Source: a virus (taxonomy: Duplodnaviria; Heunggongvirae; Uroviricota; Caudoviricetes). Taken from it: a DNA stretch of 22,668 bases. The stretch is from IMG/VR virus record IMGVR_UViG_2778260991_000002, positions 1 to 22,668 of that record. One strand, 5' to 3'. The notes beneath the pieces are model-generated. The model made no database searches and had not been told where the DNA came from. It was given only the letters and a program-made list of their open reading frames with translations. Positions 1-7,388 of the stretch are shown here, piece after piece (position 1 is the stretch's first letter; each line of letters starts with the position of its first letter). The translations under genes were made by a program, and so were the position numbers.

Positions 1-105
1 GACGAGCTGCATGCGGATACCGTGGCATTTGAAGAGAAGTATGGCTCCCAGCTGGAGCTGATATTTCGTTTTATCGACCGTGCGTTGGCAATTGGTGTGC
101 TAGCC
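1..105 (+). CDS. 3' end of an upstream gene of unknown function (partial, start lies outside window)
   Basis: Open frame from base 1 reading ...DELHADTVAFEEKYGSQLELIFRFIDRALAIGVLA, stop TGA at 103-105. Sits directly upstream of Q as expected for a nin-region gene. Product not recognised. Confidence 0.4.
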
Positions 106-122
106 TGATTTGGTGGAGAAAG

Positions 123-491
123 TTGATGCGTGATATTCAGATGGTTCTGGAGCGTTGGGGGGCATGGGCGGCGAGTGATAGTTCAGGCGTTGATTATTCA
201 CCTATAGCTGCTGGGTTTAAGGGACTTCTTCCCTATACAAGCAAGAAACGCTTGGCTTGTTCGGATAGTGATGCCTTAATTATTGAAGGTTGTCTTGCTC
301 GTCTAAAGCAAAAAAGGCCGGACGAACATTCGCTTCTTGTTGCCCATTACCTATACGGTATCTCTAAAAGAAAGCTCGCCAAGGCTCGTAAAAAAGATGA
401 GAAATTGATACGTATAGAAATACAGCTAGCCGAAGGATTTATTGATGGCTGCCTTTCCATGCTAGATCTAACATTAGATTTGGACGTTTAA
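123..491 (+). CDS. Q: Late-gene antitermination protein Q, short QuuD/phage-82-like type (122 aa), not the lambda Q type
   Basis: 122-aa ORF starting MMRDIQMVLERWGAWAA..., recalled as the N-terminus of the short Q antiterminators of E. coli lambdoid prophages. SD-like GGTGGAGAAAG upstream of the ATG at 123 (second ATG at 126). Position immediately upstream of the lysis region fits Q. Confidence 0.8.
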   Translation: MMRDIQMVLERWGAWAASDSSGVDYSPIAAGFKGLLPYTSKKRLACSDSDALIIEGCLARLKQKRPDEHSLLVAHYLYGISKRKLAKARKKDEKLIRIEIQLAEGFIDGCLSMLDLTLDLDV

Positions 492-520
492 TAATACGCC
501 CCTGCATGGGGCGTATTATT
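490..520. terminator. Strong hairpin between convergent Q and KAP NTPase genes; candidate bidirectional intrinsic terminator
   Basis: Perfect inverted repeat AATACGCCCC (493-502) / GGGGCGTATT (508-517) with loop TGCAT, extendable to about 13 bp (490-520). Overlaps the Q stop (489-491) and the minus-strand KAP stop (520-522). Flanked by moderately U-rich sequence on both strands. Confidence 0.55.
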
Positions 521-1851
521 TACTGGATGAATGACATTTGATTAATATATTTTATCAATAACTCTCTGGGGGTAGTACTCCAAAAATTTATGTGTTCATA
601 ATCAGTATAAACATTTGTGAATTTTTTAAGTTCTTCATCACTTTTAGGGGCAAATCGCTCATTAAGAGTAATACTGTCTTTAATTATTCCGAAGAATACA
701 ATGGATATTTCAGGGATTTGCGATCTTCTCTCATAAGAATAAGGTATTTCTTTTATGTTAAGCAGGTCTGCTAAATAAGATATAGATTCAGCGGTAATTT
801 CTTGTTTTAGTTTTTCCTTGTTACCAAAGCAATGTATGAAGGCAGCTACGACAAAGATCATATTTATTAAAGGATTACTGCTTTTGTTCTCATCGTCGTT
901 TAACAGTTGAAAAATGTTAAGATTGCGTGAAAATGTTTGTGTTTCACGTAATGATAAGTTGGTTCGTTGAATTAAATCACGGATAAAGTAACCTGATAAT
1001 CTATTGATTTTATTCAATAACCTTGTTTTTTCTACAAGATAATCCCAATATATAACAGAGGCTTTACATACGTTGTGACCATTTATCAAACATGTATCTG
1101 GAAGCGTGATGGTATATTTTATAAACTTGTCAAGATATTTTTGTGAGTTAATGCTATAACCATAAATATGATTTATAGATGCTTTTAATTGTTCTGTGTT
1201 TGTAACTAAAATAAAAAAGACATTATTGATGTCAAAAATGTGTTTTATTGTTTCAATAACATTTGTTGAAAAACTCGGCTTACATCGGTCTAATTCATCA
1301 ATTATAATTACGATTTTTTGATTTTTTGATATACTTTCGATGCAGGATTTAAGTGAATTTATGTTTTTCTCTGAGTCCATATGGTCTTCAAGCAAATTTT
1401 CAATAGTCCCATCTATTGCTGCATTGCTTGCTTTCTTCATCGCATCTTGGAATTCTTCGGCAACTTCACTAGCCTCCTGTCGTAAAAACCAACCTGCACC
1501 AGCTTTTAGTACCGTTTTTAAACCAAAGCGAATTGCAGGAAGAGATCTCTTAATGAAGTGTTGTTTTTCTTCCTCAGGCAAAATGCTGGCAATTGCAGAG
1601 GTTATGAGAAGTAATGGAGATTCTGCATGATCCCCTTTAAAGGCATCAATATAAACAACTTTAGATTCAGTTTCTTGCTCAATAATGAGATTTTTCAGTT
1701 TGATACTAAATTCTGTTTTCCCTGTTCCCCATGCGCCGTCTATTACCAGTGGTGAAATGTCTGCCTCTGGTTTTAGCAACTTGATGATATTTTCAGCGAT
1801 GTTTCTTCGTTGGAACTCGTCACGTTCAGTGAAAGATAGTGTATCTAACAT
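520..1851 (-). CDS. KAP-family P-loop NTPase (PifA-like), 443 aa; accessory gene, candidate phage-exclusion/defence protein
   Basis: Walker A with the KAP-typical tryptophan, GAWGTGKT, near the N-terminus, and Walker B IVIIIDELDRC (the DELDRC KAP hallmark). Local GC is much lower than the flanks (about 25% in a sampled 60-nt stretch at 1141-1200, against roughly 55-60% in the structural genes). Opposite strand to all phage late genes. Confidence 0.75.
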   Translation of the reverse strand: MLDTLSFTERDEFQRRNIAENIIKLLKPEADISPLVIDGAWGTGKTEFSIKLKNLIIEQETESKVVYIDAFKGDHAESPLLLITSAIASILPEEEKQHFIKRSLPAIRFGLKTVLKAGAGWFLRQEASEVAEEFQDAMKKASNAAIDGTIENLLEDHMDSEKNINSLKSCIESISKNQKIVIIIDELDRCKPSFSTNVIETIKHIFDINNVFFILVTNTEQLKASINHIYGYSINSQKYLDKFIKYTITLPDTCLINGHNVCKASVIYWDYLVEKTRLLNKINRLSGYFIRDLIQRTNLSLRETQTFSRNLNIFQLLNDDENKSSNPLINMIFVVAAFIHCFGNKEKLKQEITAESISYLADLLNIKEIPYSYERRSQIPEISIVFFGIIKDSITLNERFAPKSDEELKKFTNVYTDYEHINFWSTTPRELLIKYINQMSFIQ

Positions 1852-1974
1852 AATATAAACCTATTAACTCCTACAGTAAAAAACGAATAATACGACTTTG
1901 GGATTAAAAATCATTAACCCGGTCCGCAAAAATTCTTGTAATCTGTTAAGAGTGGTTACTTCGCCACACAGCTT

Positions 1975-1999
1975 AAACCCGCCGTCGAGCGGGTTTTTT
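1975..1999 (+). terminator. Rho-independent terminator-like hairpin followed by a T6 run
   Basis: AAACCCGC (1975-1982) pairs with GCGGGTTT (1989-1996) around loop CGTCGA, then T-run to 1999. Lies in the non-coding gap between the KAP gene start and the wHTH/methyltransferase genes, oriented for plus-strand transcription. Confidence 0.55.
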
Positions 2000-2121
2000 G
2001 TACCTGTAAACCAAGAGCAGTACGGTAAACACGCTGGTGGTCGTGAATACTGACTTTTTATCTTGCTGGCTTTTTAGACAAGAGTTATTGGTATGTCATG
2101 TTAACCAGAAGGGAAAAAGAC

Positions 2122-2316
2122 ATGCTAAAACAGCAAGATATGACAGAAACGGCGAAAGTTGTTTTTAATGAATTAAGCATCGAACCGGCAACAGTCGGGG
2201 AGATTGCACAAAACACATACCTTTCACGCGAACGCTGTCAGTTAATACTGACCCAGCTGGTTATGGCGGGGCTGGCAGATTACCAGTTCGGCTGTTACAG
2301 ACGCCTTCAGCAATGA
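2122..2316 (+). CDS. Small winged-helix DNA-binding protein (possibly FaeA/PapI-like), about 64 aa
   Basis: ORF 2098-2316; the ATG at 2122 is preferred because of SD GAAGGGA (2108-2114) 7 nt upstream, with 2098 and 2140 as alternatives. Segment TVGEIAQNTYLSRERCQLILTQLVMAGLADY has the helix-turn-helix/wing pattern of small wHTH regulators. Family assignment is from pattern only. Confidence 0.45.
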   Translation: MLKQQDMTETAKVVFNELSIEPATVGEIAQNTYLSRERCQLILTQLVMAGLADYQFGCYRRLQQ

Positions 2317-2465
2317 AGGGCTTTTAATTTGTGAAAATGGGCGGCTGGTGGGTGTTGGTAGCACTTGCCAGCCATTCGCTCATGCTTACTGGTCACAAGC
2401 GAACCATGGCCCACTGCTTTAGCGCAAAAGCAGAGTGAGCCTACCAGAGTTACGCTTACTGATCC

Positions 2466-3518
2466 ATGAAAAATACTGTAAAAATAAACAGTGTTGATTT
2501 AATCAACGCTGATTGCCTGCATTTTATTCAGTCCCTGCCTGATGACTCCATTGATCTGATTGTTACCGATCCACCGTACTTCAAAGTGAAGCCCAACGGC
2601 TGGGACAATCAGTGGAAAGGGGACGAAGATTACCTTAAGTGGCTGGACCACTGTCTGGCCCAGTTCTGGCGGGTGTTGAAACCTGCCGGAAGCCTTTACC
2701 TGTTCTGTGGACATCGCCTGGCATCTGATATCGAGATCATGATGCGTGAACGTTTCAATGTGCTTAACCATATCATCTGGGCGAAGCCGTCCGGACGTTG
2801 GAATGGGTGTAATAAAGAAAGTTTGCGCGCATATTTTCCTGCCACAGAGCGCGTTCTGTTTGCTGAACATTACCAGGGGCCATATCGCGGCAAAAGTGAC
2901 GGCTATGCGGCAAAAGAAAGGGAACTCAAACAGCACATAATGGCACCGCTGATATCGTATTTCAGGGATGCTCGTGCCGAACTGGGTATAACGGCAAAAC
3001 AGATTGCCGAAGCCACAGGTAAGAAAAATATGGTTTCCCACTGGTTTGGTGCCAGTCAGTGGCAGTTGCCGAATGAGGCTGACTACCGGAAGTTGCAGGC
3101 ACTTTTTTCCCGTATAGCGGCAGAGAAGTTTCAGAAACAACAACTGGAACAACCACACCACCAGCTGGTGGCATCTTATGATTCACTGAATCGCAAATAT
3201 TCTGAATTGCTGGATGAGTTTAAATCTCTCCGGCGCTATTTCTCCGTATCAGTCTCCGTGCCTTATACCGATGTCTGGATGCATAAACCCGTTCAGTTCT
3301 ACCCGGGTAAACATCCGTGTGAGAAACCGGCGGATATGCTCAGGCAAATAATCAACGCCAGTAGTCGACCAGGTGATCTGGTTGCTGATTTCTTTATGGG
3401 ATCCGGTTCCACAATAAAAGCAGCAATGGCGCTGGGGCGTCGGGCGTTAGGTGTTGAGCTTGAGTCAGAGCGGTTTAACCAGACGGTGAAAGAGGTAAGT
3501 GAACTGGTGGGGAAATAA
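2466..3518 (+). CDS. DNA methyltransferase, beta-class amino-methyltransferase (N6-adenine or N4-cytosine; DPPY suggests N6-adenine), 350 aa, no cognate endonuclease seen
   Basis: Motif IV IVTDPPYF near the N-terminus and AdoMet-binding motif I FFMGSGST near the C-terminus, which is the beta-class order. The central region between them is the presumptive target-recognition domain. No restriction endonuclease gene adjacent. Confidence 0.85.
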   Translation: MKNTVKINSVDLINADCLHFIQSLPDDSIDLIVTDPPYFKVKPNGWDNQWKGDEDYLKWLDHCLAQFWRVLKPAGSLYLFCGHRLASDIEIMMRERFNVLNHIIWAKPSGRWNGCNKESLRAYFPATERVLFAEHYQGPYRGKSDGYAAKERELKQHIMAPLISYFRDARAELGITAKQIAEATGKKNMVSHWFGASQWQLPNEADYRKLQALFSRIAAEKFQKQQLEQPHHQLVASYDSLNRKYSELLDEFKSLRRYFSVSVSVPYTDVWMHKPVQFYPGKHPCEKPADMLRQIINASSRPGDLVADFFMGSGSTIKAAMALGRRALGVELESERFNQTVKEVSELVGK

Positions 3519-3568
3519 TTCTGGTGTCAGAGCTTTTATTCGCTAATTTTTTCACTGGGAGGCTATTT

Positions 3569-3826
3569 ATGCATTCACACCATCATCAAATATCTATGAT
3601 CCCACTTACCATGAGTTCACCCATTAAAGGTTTTTCACTGTATGTAGAAAGCGAAGACATGGCTGTCGCTATAGCTGAGCTTGAAAATGCCTTATCACAG
3701 CTCAAGAATGGAAATAAGGCATTCAAAGAAAGTGGCACGCTGGTTGGTAACGTCAGAGCAAGTTATTGCTATCCTTACCGTCCTCATTGTGCCGCGAAAG
3801 GTCTTTATTGGGATGAAGGGGATTAA
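3569..3826 (+). CDS. Hypothetical protein, 85 aa
   Basis: ORF 3524-3826; start at ATG 3569 preferred because of strong SD GGGAGG (3557-3562) 6 nt upstream. Stop TAA 3824-3826 overlaps the stop of the convergent gene. No recognisable motif. Confidence 0.5.
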   Translation: MHSHHHQISMIPLTMSSPIKGFSLYVESEDMAVAIAELENALSQLKNGNKAFKESGTLVGNVRASYCYPYRPHCAAKGLYWDEGD

Positions 3827-4347
3827 GCAAGGACTTGTTCACCGATAGTTACTGGTAACGGACAAATGTATTCCCAGACTGGATCAGGGTTAAAAGTTTT
3901 TCCTGACCAGTAAAGTTCCATTCTGTAGGTGAATTCCAATACCGATGTATCATTTCTTAATAATGACATATCTCCGCGATGATAACTATCTGTTTGTATT
4001 ATGAAAATTTTATCTGATGGTTTTCCGTCTGTAAGTCGAAAATGTTTAGCCTCCTCCAGGTTACCCCAGGCGAAGAGTGACGTATAGCGAGAAGGTTTTT
4101 GCGGGCAAACTCCTCTTCGGTAAAACTCAAGTCCCCAGTCGATGAGTTCGTTTTTATTATAAATTTTTGCCGCATTATTAATGAGGTATCCTTCGCCTTG
4201 TGGAGCAAGCCCGCGCGGAAAAAGTTTGTCTACCAGAGATGACATTTCAACAGGAGTTATATCGGAGAATTGCTTTGGTGTAACGATATCGCCTGTTGAG
4301 TATATTCCTCGGCGATCAACCATAAATAGTTTCATTAATTTCTCCAT
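3823..4347 (-). CDS. Hypothetical protein, 174 aa, cytoplasmic (no signal peptide), moderately AT-rich accessory gene
   Basis: Uninterrupted 174-codon ORF on the minus strand; sampled GC about 37%. Convergent with the 3569-3826 gene and sharing the 4-nt TTAA stop overlap (3823-3826). No family recognised by eye. Confidence 0.6.
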   Translation of the reverse strand: MEKLMKLFMVDRRGIYSTGDIVTPKQFSDITPVEMSSLVDKLFPRGLAPQGEGYLINNAAKIYNKNELIDWGLEFYRRGVCPQKPSRYTSLFAWGNLEEAKHFRLTDGKPSDKIFIIQTDSYHRGDMSLLRNDTSVLEFTYRMELYWSGKTFNPDPVWEYICPLPVTIGEQVLA

Positions 4348-4575
4348 TGATAGTTGTTACTTTTGGCGATGTAACGATATCAAACGAGAATTTATATCGC
4401 CAGATGCTTAATCTGACACTTCATCTGACCCTAGTATGTGCCGTTTTTTTTATTTAAGGCCGCTGACAGGTCCATTTAGTGCGACGCCTTTCCCCGTTTC
4501 CGCTCCTGGAATATTCGGGGATTTTTTATTCCCTCAATTTGCACCCGCGATATGTGCGAGGTGAGAGATGACGAA

Positions 4576-4911
4576 ATGCCTCATAACCCAAATACCTGGC
4601 CGGACTGGCTGGAGTTGTTCCAGAGCTGGTGGCGTGGAGACACACCACTGGGCGCAGTGATTATGTCGATCGTTATGGCTGGTTTACGTATTGCCTATTT
4701 TGGCGGCGGTGGCGGCTGGAAACGAAAAACACTCGAAATTTTGCTCTGTGGTGCTCTGACGCTGACATTTGCATCCGCTCTTGAGTATGTCGGATGGCCT
4801 AAATCGCTTTCTGTTGCCATTGGTGGTGGCGTGGGGCTGATCGGTGTCGATGCTATTCGTGGGGCTGCAATGCGAGTAATCGGTAACAAATTTGGTAGCT
4901 CGAAGGAGTAA
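4576..4911 (+). CDS. Class I holin (three predicted TM segments), not lambda S-like in sequence
   Basis: ORF 4552-4911. ATG at 4576 preferred (SD GAGGTGAGAG at 4558-4567); upstream in-frame ATG at 4552 could give a longer antiholin-like form. Three hydrophobic stretches (LGAVIMSIVMAGLRIAYF, TLEILLCGALTLTFASALEYVGW, LSVAIGGGVGLIGVDAI) and a charged C-terminus. Immediately precedes endolysin R. Confidence 0.7.
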   Translation: MPHNPNTWPDWLELFQSWWRGDTPLGAVIMSIVMAGLRIAYFGGGGGWKRKTLEILLCGALTLTFASALEYVGWPKSLSVAIGGGVGLIGVDAIRGAAMRVIGNKFGSSKE

Positions 4912-4914
4912 TTT

Positions 4915-5391
4915 ATGCAGGCACTAAATTCCCAGCGTAAAGCTTTCCTTGATATGGTGGCATGGTCAGAAGGAACGGATAACGGGAGACAACCGACACG
5001 TAACCACGGTTATGACGTTATTGTCGGTGGCGAACTCTTCACTGATTACTCCGATCACCCTCGAAAACTTGTCACGCTAAATTCGAAAATCAAATCAACA
5101 GCAGCCGGACGTTACCAACTCCTTTCCCGTTGGTGGGATGCCTACCGCAAGCAGCTTGGTCTGAAAGACTTCTCTCCGAAAAGCCAGGACGCTGTTGCAC
5201 TGCAGCAGATTAAAGAGCGTGGCGCTTTACCGATGATTGATCGCGGTGATATTAGTCAGGCTATCGATCGTTGCAGCAATATCTGGGCTTCACTGCCGGG
5301 CGCTGGTTATGGTCAGTTCGAGCATAAAGTTGACAGCCTGATTGCAAAATTCAAAGAAGCAGGCGGAACGGTCAGAGAGATTGAGGTATGA
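4915..5391 (+). CDS. R: Endolysin R (lambda-type lytic transglycosylase), 158 aa
   Basis: Near-identical to recalled lambda R (…[52 protein letters not shown]…). Start 4 nt after the holin stop; its stop overlaps the Rz start. Confidence 0.95.
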
Positions 5392-5831
5392 GCAGAATAA
5401 CCGCGATTATCTCCGCTCTGGTTATTTGTATCATCGCCTGCCTGTCATTGGCTGTTAATCATTACCGTGATAACGCCATCACCTACAAAGAACAGCGCGA
5501 CAAAGCCGCATCCATTATCGCTGACATGCAGAAGCGTCAACGTGATGTAGCTGAACTCGATGCCAGATACACAAAGGAGCTTGCTGATGCTAACGCGACT
5601 ATCGAAAGTCTTCGTGCTGATGTTTCTGCTGGTCGTAAGTGGCTGTACGTCAAAGCAGTCTGTCCGGACATGCATAAAACCACCGCCGCCTCCGGCGTGG
5701 ATGATGGCGCCAGCCCCAGACTTACTGACACCGCTCAACGGGATTATTTCGTTCTCAGAGAGCGCATCGAAACCATAACTAACCAATTGAATGGCCTGCA
5801 AGAGTATGTGAGATCACAGTGTTCATATTAG
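5388..5831 (+). CDS. Rz: Spanin inner-membrane subunit Rz (i-spanin)
   Basis: N-terminal TM segment [20 protein letters not shown], then a coiled-coil region; matches lambda Rz. ATGA overlap with the R stop. Confidence 0.9.
5587..5778 (+). CDS. Rz1: Spanin outer-membrane lipoprotein subunit Rz1 (o-spanin), embedded in the +1 frame of Rz
   Basis: ORF 5560-5778 lies wholly inside Rz in another frame. ATG at 5587 preferred (SD AAGGAG 7 nt upstream). Lipobox-like LVVSGC followed by TSKQSV and a proline-rich stretch PPPPPAW, as in lambda Rz1. Confidence 0.8.
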
Positions 5832-5869
5832 AAAAGTCTTATCATAAGATTTTTGTATATGGATGCATT

Positions 5870-6244
5870 ATGTCTCAATACGCGCGCGCCGCTTTAATTG
5901 CTTATTATTTGGTTGCTGATAATTCAATATCCCCTCGTGATGCATGGGATGCTGCTGTCGCTGAGGTTACAGAAAGCGAATCGGCAAGAAAGAAGGGATG
6001 CCCAAGGGCAACGTTTCTCGCTCTGGCGGATAGCGGTTATCTGAAGAAAGTAAAACCACATCATGGGGAGAAAAAGATCGGTAAGTTGTACCAAAGGGCA
6101 ATTGAAGTTGCGAATCTGATTCTTGATTTACCCGGAATTAGCAAAGCTGAGCTAGTTGATAAAGCTTGCTATAAAGACAGGCAAGGGTCTTATGACATTG
6201 CTCTAACTCTCGCTCAGTGCGGATTACTCCAGCGTCCTCAATAA
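5870..6244 (+). CDS. Hypothetical protein (about 124 aa) downstream of the lysis cassette, at the position lambda uses for bor/accessory genes
   Basis: ORF 5819-6244 opens with a GTG inside the Rz 3' end; the in-frame ATG at 5870 is the more likely start (weak SD GGA). Followed by a terminator-like hairpin. No motif recognised. Confidence 0.45.
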   Translation: MSQYARAALIAYYLVADNSISPRDAWDAAVAEVTESESARKKGCPRATFLALADSGYLKKVKPHHGEKKIGKLYQRAIEVANLILDLPGISKAELVDKACYKDRQGSYDIALTLAQCGLLQRPQ

Positions 6245-6262
6245 GATATTAAGTGATTTATG

Positions 6263-6286
6263 GCCTCGCTTTTAGCGGGGCTTTTT
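6263..6286 (+). terminator. Rho-independent terminator-like hairpin
   Basis: GCCTCGC (6263-6269) / GCGGGGC (6275-6281) with one G-U pair, loop TTTTA, then T5 (6282-6286). Directly after the 5870-6244 ORF. Confidence 0.5.
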
Positions 6287-6342
6287 CATATCTGAATCTC
6301 ACCATGCATATCATCACCTGACTGGAACGTCAGGAGAATTCG

Positions 6343-6525
6343 TTACGGGGATTCGATAAAGGTATTCAAGCCTGACACATTATGCGCTGTATCGTCGCCG
6401 TATTCCCGCATTAACCATGACCGTAGCCCGACGGGGAATTCCTTCTGCGCGAGTGTGCGGGAATAATCAAAAACGATGCACACCGGGTTTTTACCGCGTT
6501 TATGATTCGCGGGTTTGTCACTCAT
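6343..6525 (-). CDS. Small hypothetical protein (about 60 aa; ORF extends to 6594), possibly a small prophage protein of the kind found just upstream of cos in other lambdoid prophages
   Basis: Minus-strand ORF 6343-6594; the internal Met at 6525 gives MSDKPANHKRGKNPVCIV.... The equivalent lambda region is non-coding as far as I recall, so this may not be a real gene. Confidence 0.25.
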   Translation of the reverse strand: MSDKPANHKRGKNPVCIVFDYSRTLAQKEFPVGLRSWLMREYGDDTAHNVSGLNTFIESP

Positions 6526-6679
6526 GCTCGCCAGTCCTGTGCGGGGGTGGAAGAAACAGGACGTGTATTCAGGTCTGTGCGACCGTGGTCGCACGACTTT
6601 GGTCGTTCAGATATTAAATCCCATTGCGAAGTAAACCCGAATTGCTGGCGGGTCCTTTCCGGCAATCCAGAACGTTACG

Positions 6680-6691
6680 GGGCGGAAGGCT
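6680..6691 (+). other. cosN, the 12-nt cohesive-end site: GGGCGGAAGGCT here, against GGGCGGCGACCT in lambda
   Basis: Flanks match the recalled lambda ends closely (…CGTTACG | 12-mer | CGCGGGTTTTCGCTATTTATGAAAATTTTCCGGTTTAAGG…), and Nu1 starts about 190 nt downstream as in lambda. The 12-mer differs from lambda at positions 7-10. Confidence 0.65.
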
Positions 6692-6868
6692 CGCGGGTTT
6701 TCGCTATTTATGAAAATTTTCCGGTTTAAGGTGTTTCCGTTCTTCTTCGTCGTAACTTAATGTTTTTATTTAAAATACCCCCTGAAAAGAAAGGAAACGA
6801 CAGGTGCTGAAAACGGGCTTTTTGGCCTTTGTCGTTTCCTTTCTCTGTTTTTGTCCGTGGAATGAACA
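6692..6868 (+). promoter_or_regulatory. cosB region (terminase small-subunit binding elements and IHF site) between cosN and Nu1
   Basis: Near-identical to the recalled lambda left-end leader (CGCGGGTTTTCGCTATTTATGAAAATTTTCCGGTTTAAGG...GAAAGGAAACGACAGGTGCTGAAA...), ending at the Nu1 ATG. Individual R and I1 elements not delimited. Confidence 0.55.
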
Positions 6869-7388
6869 ATGGAAGTCAACAAAAAGCAGCTGGCTGACAT
6901 TTTCGGTGCGAGTATCCGTACCATTCAGAACTGGCAGGAACAGGGAATGCCCGTTCTGCGAGGCGGTGGCAAGGGTAATGAGGTGCTTTATGATTCTGCC
7001 GCCGTTATAAAATGGTATGCCGAAAGGGATGCTGAAATTGAGAACGAAAAGCTGCGCCGGGAAGTTGAAGAACTGCGGCAGGCCAGCGAGACAGATCTCC
7101 AGCCAGGGACTATTGAGTACGAACGCCATCGACTTACGCGTGCGCAGGCCGACGCACAGGAGCTGAAAAATGCCAGAGACTCCGCTGAAGTGGTGGAAAC
7201 CGCATTCTGTACTTTCGTGCTGTCGCGGATCGCAGGTGAAATTGCCAGTATTCTCGACGGGATCCCCCTGTCGGTGCAGCGGCGTTTTCCGGAACTGGAA
7301 AACCGACATGTTGATTTCCTGAAACGGGATATCATCAAAGCCATGAACAAAGCAGCCGCGCTGGATGAACTGATACCGGGGTTGCTGA

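Follow-up and report, generated by a model that had tools for sequence, protein, structure and literature searches.

In lambda, late transcription is governed by a constitutive promoter, a promoter-proximal pause, a Q-binding element (QBE) lying between the -35 and -10 hexamers, a terminator and the late operon behind it, and the terminated RNA (6S) is 194 nt long. Phage 21 encodes a Q protein of an unrelated family (PF06530, as opposed to PF03589 for lambda); its QBE lies upstream of the -10 as a tandem direct repeat, ATTGAGCA AATGAGCA (-27 to -12), bound by two protomers arranged head to tail (6P18/6JNX), and its promoter combines a consensus -35 with an SDPE at +2 to +7. In 933W/Sakai Sp5, the Q protein belongs to the same Pfam family as Q21, and the cassette runs Q933W, pR', StxS/tR', tRNAs and stx2. 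A combination of dRNA-seq and Term-seq yields a 258-nt pR' RNA for Sp5/933W (the StxS sRNA, with a second terminator at +258). For Stx2e P27-type phages, both pR' and qut went undetected in a published analysis (PMC9729726).

Here we report the analysis of a 22,668-nt stretch of a Caudoviricetes genome (IMG/VR record IMGVR_UViG_2778260991_000002), referred to below as the window. Synteny, homology and conservation make it highly probable that positions 1906-1999 (+ strand) of this lambdoid prophage make up pR', qut and tR', the late promoter-terminator cassette belonging to an antiterminator of the Q21/933W family, separated from the Q gene by antisense cargo. As a switch, it is of the ordinary 933W/phage-21 kind. 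A candidate strain carrying the prophage is E. coli CUVET18-1475 (NZ_CP098841), at 99.7% identity.

The Q gene and the cargo at the Q/pR' junction

The Q gene of the window (126-491, + strand) encodes a 121-aa antiterminator of the Q21/933W family, with a full-length match to PF06530 (1-118/118, E 1.8e-52) and none to PF03589, the Q-lambda family, which the SfV Q protein matches with an E value of 9.5e-54. The protein is 48% identical to 933W Q, matches the Q21 structures 6JNX/6P18 weakly (E 0.005), and carries a putative recognition helix, ...KKDEKLIRIEIQLAEG. The "phage 82/21-type" label used in the initial annotation calls for refinement, this Q falling in the Q21/933W family and outside the Q82 family; the closest characterised cassette is that of 933W/Sp5.

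As had been proposed, Q is followed at once by a hairpin and an antisense KAP gene. The hairpin, read from the sequence at 493-517 between the two convergent genes, has a 10-bp stem (AATACGCCCC tgcat GGGGCGTATT) and is probably both a bidirectional terminator and the left end of a cargo cassette. The adjoining gene (520-1851, minus strand) encodes a KAP-family P-loop NTPase (PF07693, E 9.4e-71) matched by the PADLOC profile PDC-S20 over its full length (E 3.7e-177; residues 3-442 on profile positions 4-449 of 450), which makes it a candidate defence gene, an anti-phage role for PDC-S20 having candidate status in PADLOC. The region upstream of this gene (1852-1905) is a cassette-specific leader that is not shared with cargo-less relatives, and its right edge coincides with the insertion boundary. 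Together, hairpin, KAP gene and leader make up an antisense cargo cassette of 1.4 kb. By eye, TATTAT (1892-1887) can be read as a possible minus-strand -10 upstream of the KAP gene.

Homology to cargo-less relatives, which lack the KAP gene, starts at 1905/1906. In three of them with a Q protein of the same clade (Stx2_EH2201, 1720a-02 and RIVM_C037166), the homologue of 1906-2097 begins right at the Q stop codon, bearing out the earlier suggestion that pR' has been displaced to a position after the KAP gene; the distance from Q to the promoter is 1.46 kb in the window, while the two are adjacent in the cargo-less relatives. Unrelated cargo occupies the same junction in cdtI, NT1F31, ETEC1706 and AH02, which likewise supports the related proposal of a KAP gene insertion that parted Q from the site where it acts. 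The 212 validated modules divide evenly into 106 located fewer than 100 nt from the Q stop codon and 106 located behind cargo. Within IMG/VR, 64 of 74 loci carry cargo at the Q/pR' junction, comprising at least 14 types (KAP/PDC-S20, PDC-S42, TIR-TM, NYN and HNH among them) that are mostly antisense; the majority of cargo clusters match neither Pfam nor PADLOC.

The Q/pR' junction appears to be a defence-gene hotspot. It resembles the defence hotspots of P2/P4 prophages (Rousset et al. 2022, PMC9122126) in being a fixed temperate-phage junction that houses many alternative, mostly small cassettes in which defence genes, known or candidate, are enriched, and differs from them in belonging to lambdoid phages and in occupying the interval from the Q stop codon to pR' position -45. 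A literature search did not find the junction described as a hotspot; older papers on the late regions of H-19B, 82 and 21 fell outside that search. The junction could be mined for new defence systems. An old idea from the lambda literature of the 1970s-80s is that Q acts preferentially in cis; the present arrangement, in which Q can be encoded at a distance from its site, bears on that idea.

The probable late promoter and its candidate Q-binding element

Mechanical ORF calling between 1852 and 2097 returns only frames of up to 51 aa. About 200 relatives of this region were compared, with conservation percentages computed on 50 unique ones. The upstream edge of the conserved module is an A-tract (1906-1910, -45 to -41; A in 82-94% of the unique relatives) that is possibly UP-element-like. 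The predicted -10 hexamer, TAATCT (1939-1944, -12 to -7), aligns with the annotated 933W -10, TATCAT. In the 50 unique relatives, A-11 and T-7 of this hexamer are invariant (50/50 each) and T-12 is present in 44 (88%), whereas positions -10 and -8 vary freely, which is the conservation signature of a -10 element; the 212 validated modules display 22 different hexamers, all conforming to nAnnnT, a pattern that was itself a selection criterion. The -10 is followed by the block GTTAAG-A-GTGGT (1945-1956), which would cover the discriminator together with transcribed bases 1 to 6 and is 96-100% conserved, with the exception of T-5 (84%). The equivalent 933W/Sp5 region, annotated as pR', reads TATCAT-gataag-A-GTGGTTAC...AACCCGCCG...CGGGTTTTTTT, and the 258-nt length of its RNA places +1, give or take 1-2 nt, at the A homologous to A1951, the predicted start site. 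Each core motif of the module occurs exactly once in the whole window.

The initial annotation had found no convincing -35/-10 pair by eye. This holds for the -35, since no good hexamer was found at pR' (TTAACC at 1914-1919 would imply a 19-bp spacer) and a consensus promoter scan returned no promoter at 1906-1999, but the -10 emerges from homology and conservation. Two further candidates were ruled out: the scan match TTAACT-16-AATAAT (1864-1891), which lies in cassette-specific DNA absent from cargo-less relatives, and the by-eye promoter TTAACC-17-TGTAAT (1914-1942), whose -14 to -9 register loses the A at its second position and the T at its sixth in relatives. We also considered AAGAGT (-3 to +3) or TAAGAG as the true -10, given that phage 21 has TAAGCT at +2; AAGAGT is invariant but overlaps the start site, and we adopted neither, +1 being set within the same block by the length of the Sp5 RNA (258 nt). 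Either is an alternative candidate for the pause element.

The order of these elements provides a rule for finding pR' (a palindrome at -28, nAnnnT at -12 to -7, G(T/A)TAAG-A-GTGGT and a terminator) that can be transferred to many prophages in which this promoter has been described as unidentifiable. P27, whose Q protein belongs to a third clade sampled in IMG/VR by only three identical loci, does carry the module (L293, 2160-2275) and shares sequence with the window from -24 onward.

The palindrome is represented in the window by the candidate QBE CCGGTCCGCA (1919-1928, -32 to -23, + strand), of which there is a single exact copy. In relatives the element is GCGGTCCGC, a palindrome of 9 bp with its centre at -28. 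The window version, CCGGTCCGC at -32 to -24, departs from it at -32, with C in place of the G found in 48 of the 50 unique relatives. Positions -31 to -23 are 98-100% conserved in these relatives, in contrast with the stretch from -22 to -13, which is not conserved. Across the Enterobacterales, at least six palindrome classes can be distinguished at -34 to -21, the others including GTAATTAC, GCGTACGC, TCGTTACGA and GGAATTCC, each with its centre at -28 or -27.5. The class changes with the Q recognition helix, and in the two-way partition it does so in 83/83 and 70/70 loci. The correspondence extends to the central base pairs within the 933W clade, where the helix T.IGKRL pairs with the centre AT (74/75) and G.IGKKL with the centre TA (23/25). 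The palindrome at -34 to -21 is hence a candidate QBE specific to the cognate Q, as suggested by sequence covariation to which the physical linkage of Q and pR' could add.

It is rather unlikely that the module is the late promoter and yet this palindrome is not the QBE, being instead a feature of the -35 region or spacer, or the site of another regulator, with Q reading the invariant start block (GTTAAGAGTGGT) or the transcribed inverted repeat. Such a reading would account for the near invariance of the -6 to +6 block in all clades (96-100%, T-5 84%) and for the GenBank annotation of the 933W qut within the transcribed region (+8 to +15), and it would agree with the binding of Q21 to direct repeats, with no palindrome, and with the overlap between the 933W-clade palindrome and the -35 hexamer TTTACG. 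A start block common to all Q clades cannot, however, carry clade specificity, and the palindrome is the only element of the module that switches with the Q helix, down to an AT/TA centre tracking a Thr/Gly residue, whereas initial transcribed region (ITR) and terminator types are shared between clades.

Returning to the palindrome as the QBE, we are inclined to think that the Q subfamily with the N-terminus MRDIQMVLERWGAWAA, which includes Q933W and the window Q, may bind a dyad QBE at -28, presumably as a symmetric dimer and not on a tandem repeat, with specificity set by a few helix residues (Thr/Gly for AT/TA), and that the Q/QBE junction would be a previously unrecognised antisense defence hotspot in lambdoid prophages of the Enterobacterales. 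A palindromic docking site for Q does not seem to have been described: our literature search returned no QBE for Q933W, although a prior description is possible in older work on the H-19B, 82 and 21 late regions, which lay outside the search. For the subfamily regulating Shiga toxin expression, the candidate element suggests that Q is loaded in a geometry other than the one solved for Q21. A separate search of IMG/VR with the exact 14-mer of the Q21 QBE gave 120 hits, all of them due to chance and none with a second TGAGCA; the phage 21 sequence itself came from a tblastn search.

The predicted terminator and late transcript

The strong terminator that had been noted at 1975-1999 is found there exactly as AAACCCGC/GCGGGTTT plus T6. 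This predicted intrinsic terminator, tR' (+ strand), has a canonical, GC-rich 8-bp stem (1975-1982/1989-1996), the loop CGTCGA and a T-run (1994-1999) reaching +49. Folded, RNA 1951-2005 reaches -19.8 kcal/mol; shuffled sequences average -11.2 kcal/mol (z -3.69), and none of 200 is as good. A generic terminator scan did not list the hairpin, probably because the T-run is partly counted in the stem. Nearly all of 53 unique relatives have a terminator at about +25 to +70, built on several unrelated stems, and the SfV and Ayreon annotations put a terminator at the homologous site. No other terminator separates the start site from the wHTH gene in the window, 1996-2100 holding no second one. An RNA terminated at tR' would be about 49 nt long, as in phage 21.

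The leader RNA may also form a 5' stem-loop (GUGGU/GCCAC, 1952-1967, +2 to +17), which is part of the minimum free energy structure. Among 76 unique ITRs, 84% of cells are paired and the pair 5-14 occurs as GC in 27, AU in 16 and GU in 8, a pattern that is suggestive only; covariation of this hairpin is weak in the E. coli set. The loop holds TACTTC (1957-1962), a weak candidate for a sigma-dependent pause element aligning with TACATT of 933W (+7 to +12). The latter attains a -10-like score of 5.7, whereas TACTTC, without the key final T, falls below threshold, and a conserved nAnnnT sought at +1 to +28 across relatives was not found.

An unlikely reading is that the 1975-1999 hairpin is not a functional tR', so that constitutive reading from the promoter would express the wHTH and methylase genes in a lysogen, and only terminators lying beyond would require Q. 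The 258-nt Sp5/933W pR' RNA does run past the homologous first hairpin, which may be leaky there or may yield a product of about 49 nt that was not captured, and more terminator-like sites lie downstream (2304-2319 and 4504-4520). Against this stand the canonical stem followed by T6, the retention across genera of terminators of unrelated sequence at the same position, the phage 21 terminator at +3 to +50 (annotated with PMID 1704887) and the lack of any other terminator before the wHTH gene.

With tR' as the terminator that Q overcomes, the first genes of the Q-dependent transcript would be a wHTH/TrmB-like gene (2098-2316, + strand), identified through weak TrmB/DprA_WH profile matches, and an N6/N4 DNA methyltransferase gene (2466-3518, + strand; PF01555, E 1.9e-42). 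Their assignment to the late transcript, anticipated in the initial annotation, is supported by the comparison with SfV, whose Q is of the lambda family. Over window positions 99-1975 the two have no sequence in common; homology starts exactly at the terminator (1976), covers the wHTH gene and the methylase as far as 3526, and is picked up again at 4541, with the holin. These breakpoints indicate that the terminator and the genes downstream of it are exchangeable between Q families, and that the promoter and QBE are not. The layout of AH02, where a 1906-1999-type module directly precedes the holin, and the single terminator that a transcript would cross before reaching the wHTH gene point in the same direction. 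Gene order after the terminator is the same in SfV, cdtI, EH2201 and P27. The lysis cassette S-R-Rz (4552-5831, + strand; PF05106 holin) is followed by terminase and virion genes, as the ORF layout shows, and this is the late operon that pR' would serve; every late gene, lysis and structural, lies downstream of the module on the + strand. Gene order is consistent with readthrough into the lysis and virion genes.

The other location put forward for pR'/qut, 4348-4551 just upstream of the holin gene, which would reduce 1906-1999 to a mere terminator or to the promoter of an independent wHTH-methylase moron, is very improbable: although non-coding, directly before S and endowed with T-tracts and a terminator-like hairpin (4504-4520), it lacks both the palindrome and the TAAGAGTGGT block, folds unremarkably (z -1.16), falls within a 1-kb strain-specific insertion (3527-4540) that is mostly without match in the phage collection and absent from SfV, where about 80 bp separate the methylase from S, is at odds with the position of the module right before the holin in AH02, and would not explain why the module covaries with the Q clade.

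Proposed mechanism and comparison with 933W, phage 21 and lambda

By analogy with phage 21 and 933W, we infer promoter activity, termination efficiency, Q binding and a pause at 1906-1999. Sigma-70 RNA polymerase would start at about A1951, using the -10 TAATCT, the upstream A-tract and a poor -35, and without Q the transcript would end at 1975-1999. Q supplied in trans by the early rightward operon would bind the palindrome at -32 to -24 and load onto the promoter-proximally paused polymerase, rendering it terminator-resistant. Readthrough would then proceed into the wHTH and methyltransferase genes, the 3527-4540 insertion with its terminator-like hairpin (about 4504-4526) and the lysis and virion genes.

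Lambda follows the same logic with an unrelated Q family, of the type found in SfV. Phage 21 has a Q of the same family as the window, a QBE upstream of the -10 and a terminator ending at about +50 that gives an RNA of about 50 nt, as predicted for the window. Its Q is nevertheless longer (162 aa, against 121) and only marginally similar, its direct repeat contrasts with the single dyad-symmetric element of the window, and the window lacks its -35; the torus or nozzle that Q forms in the RNA exit channel is presumed for the window from Q21.

Alignment of the window with 933W is base for base between about -23 and +50. They have in common the A-tract, the position of the -10, the GxTAAG-A-GTGGTTAC ITR, the AACCCGCC...GGCGGGTTTTTT hairpin and a palindrome centred at -28/-27.5. 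The 933W palindrome, TTTACGATCGTAAA, is 14 bp long and includes a usable -35 (TTTACG) with a 16-bp spacer, whereas the window family has GCGGTCCGC and no -35; similarly, TACATT of 933W is a good -10-like element and its counterpart in the window is TACTTC. The StxS RNA (a 258-nt leader with a 74-nt Hfq-binding 3' part) is not found in the window, where 933W homology stops after the first hairpin, Rfam gives no match in 1-7000 and the second terminator of 933W has no equivalent. Finally, Q adjoins pR' in 933W, whereas 1.4 kb of antisense cargo lies between them in the window.

Position of the late-promoter module relative to Q

At the left end of the window, the Q gene (126-491, plus strand; PF06530, Q21/933W family, E 1.8e-52) is followed by a hairpin with no strand assigned (493-517), an antisense KAP-family NTPase gene (520-1851, minus strand; PF07693, E 9.4e-71) and a non-coding segment (1852-2097). 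Beyond it lie a small wHTH gene (2098-2316), an N6/N4 DNA methyltransferase gene (2466-3518) and an 85-aa ORF (3569-3826), all on the plus strand, a minus-strand 174-aa gene without Pfam or PADLOC match (3823-4347), a second non-coding segment (4348-4551) and S-R-Rz (4552-5831, plus strand), downstream of which the terminase and virion genes are on the plus strand throughout. This gene layout, together with RNA folding, bears out the elements described in the initial annotation, including the terminator at 1975-1999.

It had further been proposed that pR' is pushed away from Q, the KAP gene having been inserted between Q and its site of action, and comparison with related phages upholds both points. 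BLASTN against phage records, with 1852-2097 as query, revealed that 1906-2097 is common to many phages whose Q belongs to the clade of the window Q. Its homologue starts right at the Q stop codon in Stx2_EH2201, 1720a-02 and the RIVM_C037166 prophage, which places the module (1906-1999; promoter, candidate Q-binding element [QBE] and terminator tR') directly 3' of Q. Unrelated genes separate the same two flanks in phages cdtI (two unknown genes), NT1F31 (a 339-aa unknown), ETEC1706 (a DUF6731 protein and a membrane protein) and AH02 (a Clp-fold SDH protease, by RefSeq name). The AH02 holin lies directly 3' of the module, so no other late-promoter candidate is available in that phage. SfV and Ayreon, which encode a lambda-family Q (PF03589 in SfV), share no sequence with window 99-1975; their homology begins exactly at the terminator (1976), a hairpin annotated as such in both records, and in SfV continues through the wHTH gene and methylase. 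These breakpoints are as predicted if the promoter/qut segment is specific to Q and the terminator and late genes behind it form an exchangeable unit. A Q21/933W-family late cassette, whose activity we infer from comparison and which an antisense cargo gene has displaced from Q, largely explains the arrangement.

The other location put forward for the late promoter, 4348-4551, gained no support: neither core motif is present there (the window has a single copy of each, at 1920-1928 and 1947-1956), its fold is unremarkable, and it falls within a block (3527-4540) that is absent from SfV and mostly without match in the phage collection (only about 90 nt, 4354-4443, matched). The likely contents of this segment are the promoter driving the minus-strand 174-aa gene and, at 4504-4520, a terminator-like hairpin to which polymerase modified by Q would be insensitive. 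The block, which contains the 85-aa ORF and the 174-aa gene, constitutes a second insertion relative to SfV, between methylase and holin, and may be a second cargo site.

Predicted promoter core, terminator and leader RNA

The region 3' of Q in 933W aligns without gaps to the window (TTTACGATCGTAAAAATCTGCA-TATCAT-GATAAG-A-GTGGTTACATTGCCACGCAGTCGAACCCGCCGATGCGCGGGTTTTTTTGTACC in 933W, AACCCGGTCCGCAAAAATTCTTG-TAATCT-GTTAAG-A-GTGGTTACTTCGCCACACAGCTTAAACCCGCCGTCGAGCGGGTTTTTTGTACC in the window), and the 933W record labels TTTACG...TATCAT as pR'. In the Sakai Sp5 prophage, which is near-identical to 933W, the primary 5' end of PR' has been mapped by dRNA-seq, with a Term-seq 3' end 258 nt downstream of this start (Sy et al. 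2020; PMC7547250). Counting 258 nt back from the end of the second-terminator T-run leads to the A before GTGG in 933W and Sakai alike, with a 142-nt offset between genome versions that is the same at both RNA ends. By homology to 933W/Sp5, the window transcript is predicted to start at A1951 (+/- 1-2 nt) from a -10 element TAATCT (1939-1944), and the predicted start puts the end of the terminator T-run at +49.

Among 80 IMG/VR loci with a Q 74-100% identical to that of the window, 74 contained the module, and conservation was tabulated over their 50 unique sequences. Relative to the predicted start, an A-tract at -45 to -41 (A in 82-94%) and an invariant T at -36 precede GCGGTCCGCA at -32 to -23 (96-100%), followed by an essentially free stretch at -22 to -13. 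Within the putative -10, T-12 is conserved in 88% and both A-11 and T-7 in 100%, with positions -10 and -8 free; GTTAAG-A-GTGGT at -6 to +6 is again conserved in 96-100%, but T-5 in 84%. A working -10 characteristically retains nAnnnT while the other hexamer positions drift neutrally, as seen here; a wider set, for which nAnnnT was one selection criterion, contains 22 different hexamers. The initial annotation had found no convincing -35/-10 pair by eye. This stands for the -35, since TTAACC (1914-1919) matches at 4/6 positions but lies 19 bp from the -10, and the canonical distance falls within the palindrome taken as candidate QBE; it does not stand for the -10, which 933W homology and nAnnnT conservation identify as TAATCT. 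The promoter may draw its strength from the A-tract and the -10, or it may be weak.

The terminator at 1975-1999 (stem AAACCCGC/GCGGGTTT, loop CGTCGA, T6) is the only one before the wHTH gene in the window, and the 1951-2005 RNA folds at -19.8 kcal/mol (z = -3.69 versus shuffles). Nearly every unique relative sequence presents a hairpin and T-run ending at about +45 to +70, built on at least four unrelated stems (CCCGCC/GGCGGG, CCTCGC/GCGGGG, CCCTGCC/GGCGGGG and ACTCGC/GCGGGT), so selection, and not descent alone, keeps a terminator in place. The 933W/Sp5 homologue of the window hairpin spans +27 to +49 (1985-2007 of the 933W locus, L010), and a second terminator lies at 2188-2216. The published pR' RNA of Sp5, the 258-nt StxS, reads through the first hairpin, indicating either that this hairpin is leaky or that a product of about 49 nt went undetected. 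Because polymerase can pass the Sp5 hairpin, efficient termination at 1975-1999 remains putative.

As a candidate sigma-dependent pause element, 933W has a good -10-like sequence, TACATT, at +7 to +12, whereas the window has TACTTC at the homologous place, and across relatives nAnnnT is conserved at no position in +1 to +28. An inverted repeat at +2 to +17 (GUGGU/GCCAC; window 1952-1967) is kept across genera with a variable loop and shows some compensatory changes (pair 5-14 is GC in 27, AU in 16 and GU in 8; U6-G13 becomes C-G in Providencia). It could form a 5' stabilising stem-loop of the late RNA or part of a pause signal, the changes being suggestive only.

Cargo at the Q/pR' junction

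The junction, from the Q stop codon to about -45 of pR' (window 492-1905), bears 0.9-2.8 kb of unrelated cargo in 64 of the 74 same-clade IMG/VR loci; the other 10 are free of cargo, with the Q stop 33-44 nt upstream of the start site. With about four exceptions, the 64 loci have their largest cargo ORF on the minus strand. The cargo comprises at least 14 protein clusters, including the KAP NTPase (PADLOC PDC-S20, E 3.7e-177), PDC-S42-like (E 3.4e-27), TIR-TM (E 1.9e-57), NYN-domain and HNH/PDC-M68A-like (E 7.5e-27) proteins and a Clp-fold protease (RefSeq name); most remaining clusters gave no family match. The same junction is occupied in the 933W clade and in other genera, with 106/212 modules overall lying behind cargo, and the KAP arrangement (at least 80% of window 1-2400 covered) occurs in 50 complete E. 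coli genomes. Judged by these comparisons, the Q/pR' junction is a cargo hotspot, and no description of it as such was found in the literature searched.

Several features accompany the cargo in the window. The hairpin at 493-517, a perfect 10-bp stem (AATACGCCCC/GGGGCGTATT) where the Q and KAP genes converge, probably serves as a terminator in both directions, brought in with the cargo cassette. The 3'-terminal Q codons, too, are not the same as in cargo-less relatives, and a recombination joint may therefore fall within the 3' end of Q. A candidate KAP promoter on the minus strand, divergent from pR' (region 1852-1915), was identified by eye, with a -10 TATTAT (1892-1887) and a -35 region overlapping the pR' A-tract. 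A promoter-scan match at 1880-1852 (minus strand), probably non-functional, overlaps the KAP start codon.

Besides revealing this hotspot, the displaced cassette provides a usable rule for finding pR' where published analyses found none. Q and stx2e flank a TrmB-like gene and a methylase in one Stx2e prophage, for which neither pR' nor qut was reported (PMC9729726). Phage P27 has the same gene order and carries a full module at 2160-2275 of its locus (L293), composed of a GGAATTCC palindrome, TATCCT, GTTAAG-A-GTGGTTAC and a terminator, with a plus-strand GIY-YIG gene between Q and the module.

The candidate Q-binding element

The comparison also points to a palindromic, clade-specific candidate QBE, represented in the window by CCGGTCCGCA (1919-1928). 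Loci combining the module with the window-clade Q helix (..DEKLIRIEIQxAEG) have GCGGTCCGC in 83/83 cases, and those with the 933W-clade helix (..SDTCIGKRLHKAEG) have TTTACGWWCGTAAA in 70/70. The 933W clade (80 loci) presents TTTACGATCGTAAA or TTTACGTACGTAAA at the same position, both perfect 14-bp palindromes (933W copy, L010 1925-1938). Unlike the palindrome, the initial transcribed region and terminator types are common to both clades. P27 has a third helix, ISHTQILKRLQKAEG, its palindrome lying at -31 to -24 (L293 about 2196-2203) and its homology to the window starting at -24. At a finer scale, the AT or TA palindrome centre in the 933W clade tracks a Thr/Gly difference in the Q helix (T.IGKRL with AT, 74/75; G.IGKKL with TA, 23/25).

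A single wider scan, with one genome per species, found the module in Yersinia, Photorhabdus, Xenorhabdus, Proteus, Providencia, Pantoea, Salmonella, Citrobacter, Kosakonia and others, and added three palindrome classes: GTAATTAC, the only one scored for helix pairing, and GCGTACGC and TCGTTACGA, for which helix extraction mostly failed. The palindrome is centred at -27.5 in 119/224 loci and at -28 in 95/224, and its class shifts with the Q recognition helix, in about six classes across Enterobacterales. Physical linkage of Q and pR' could inflate this association; the 0.9-2.8 kb of unrelated cargo between them in half of the loci and the recombined neighbouring module parts count against linkage alone. 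The window itself has C at 1919 (-32), where 48/50 unique relatives have G, which breaks the outermost palindrome pair; another locus (L133) has a 100% identical Q, yet G at -32.

The start-to-terminator geometry of the module is shared with phage 21, the family prototype with a fully annotated genome, in which the terminator lies at +3 to +50 from the start site; phage 21 has a sigma-dependent pause element at +2 to +8. The dyad symmetry of the candidate element suggests a symmetric Q dimer, in contrast with the Q21 QBE, the only solved case, a tandem direct repeat (-27 to -12) on which two protomers bind in the same orientation.
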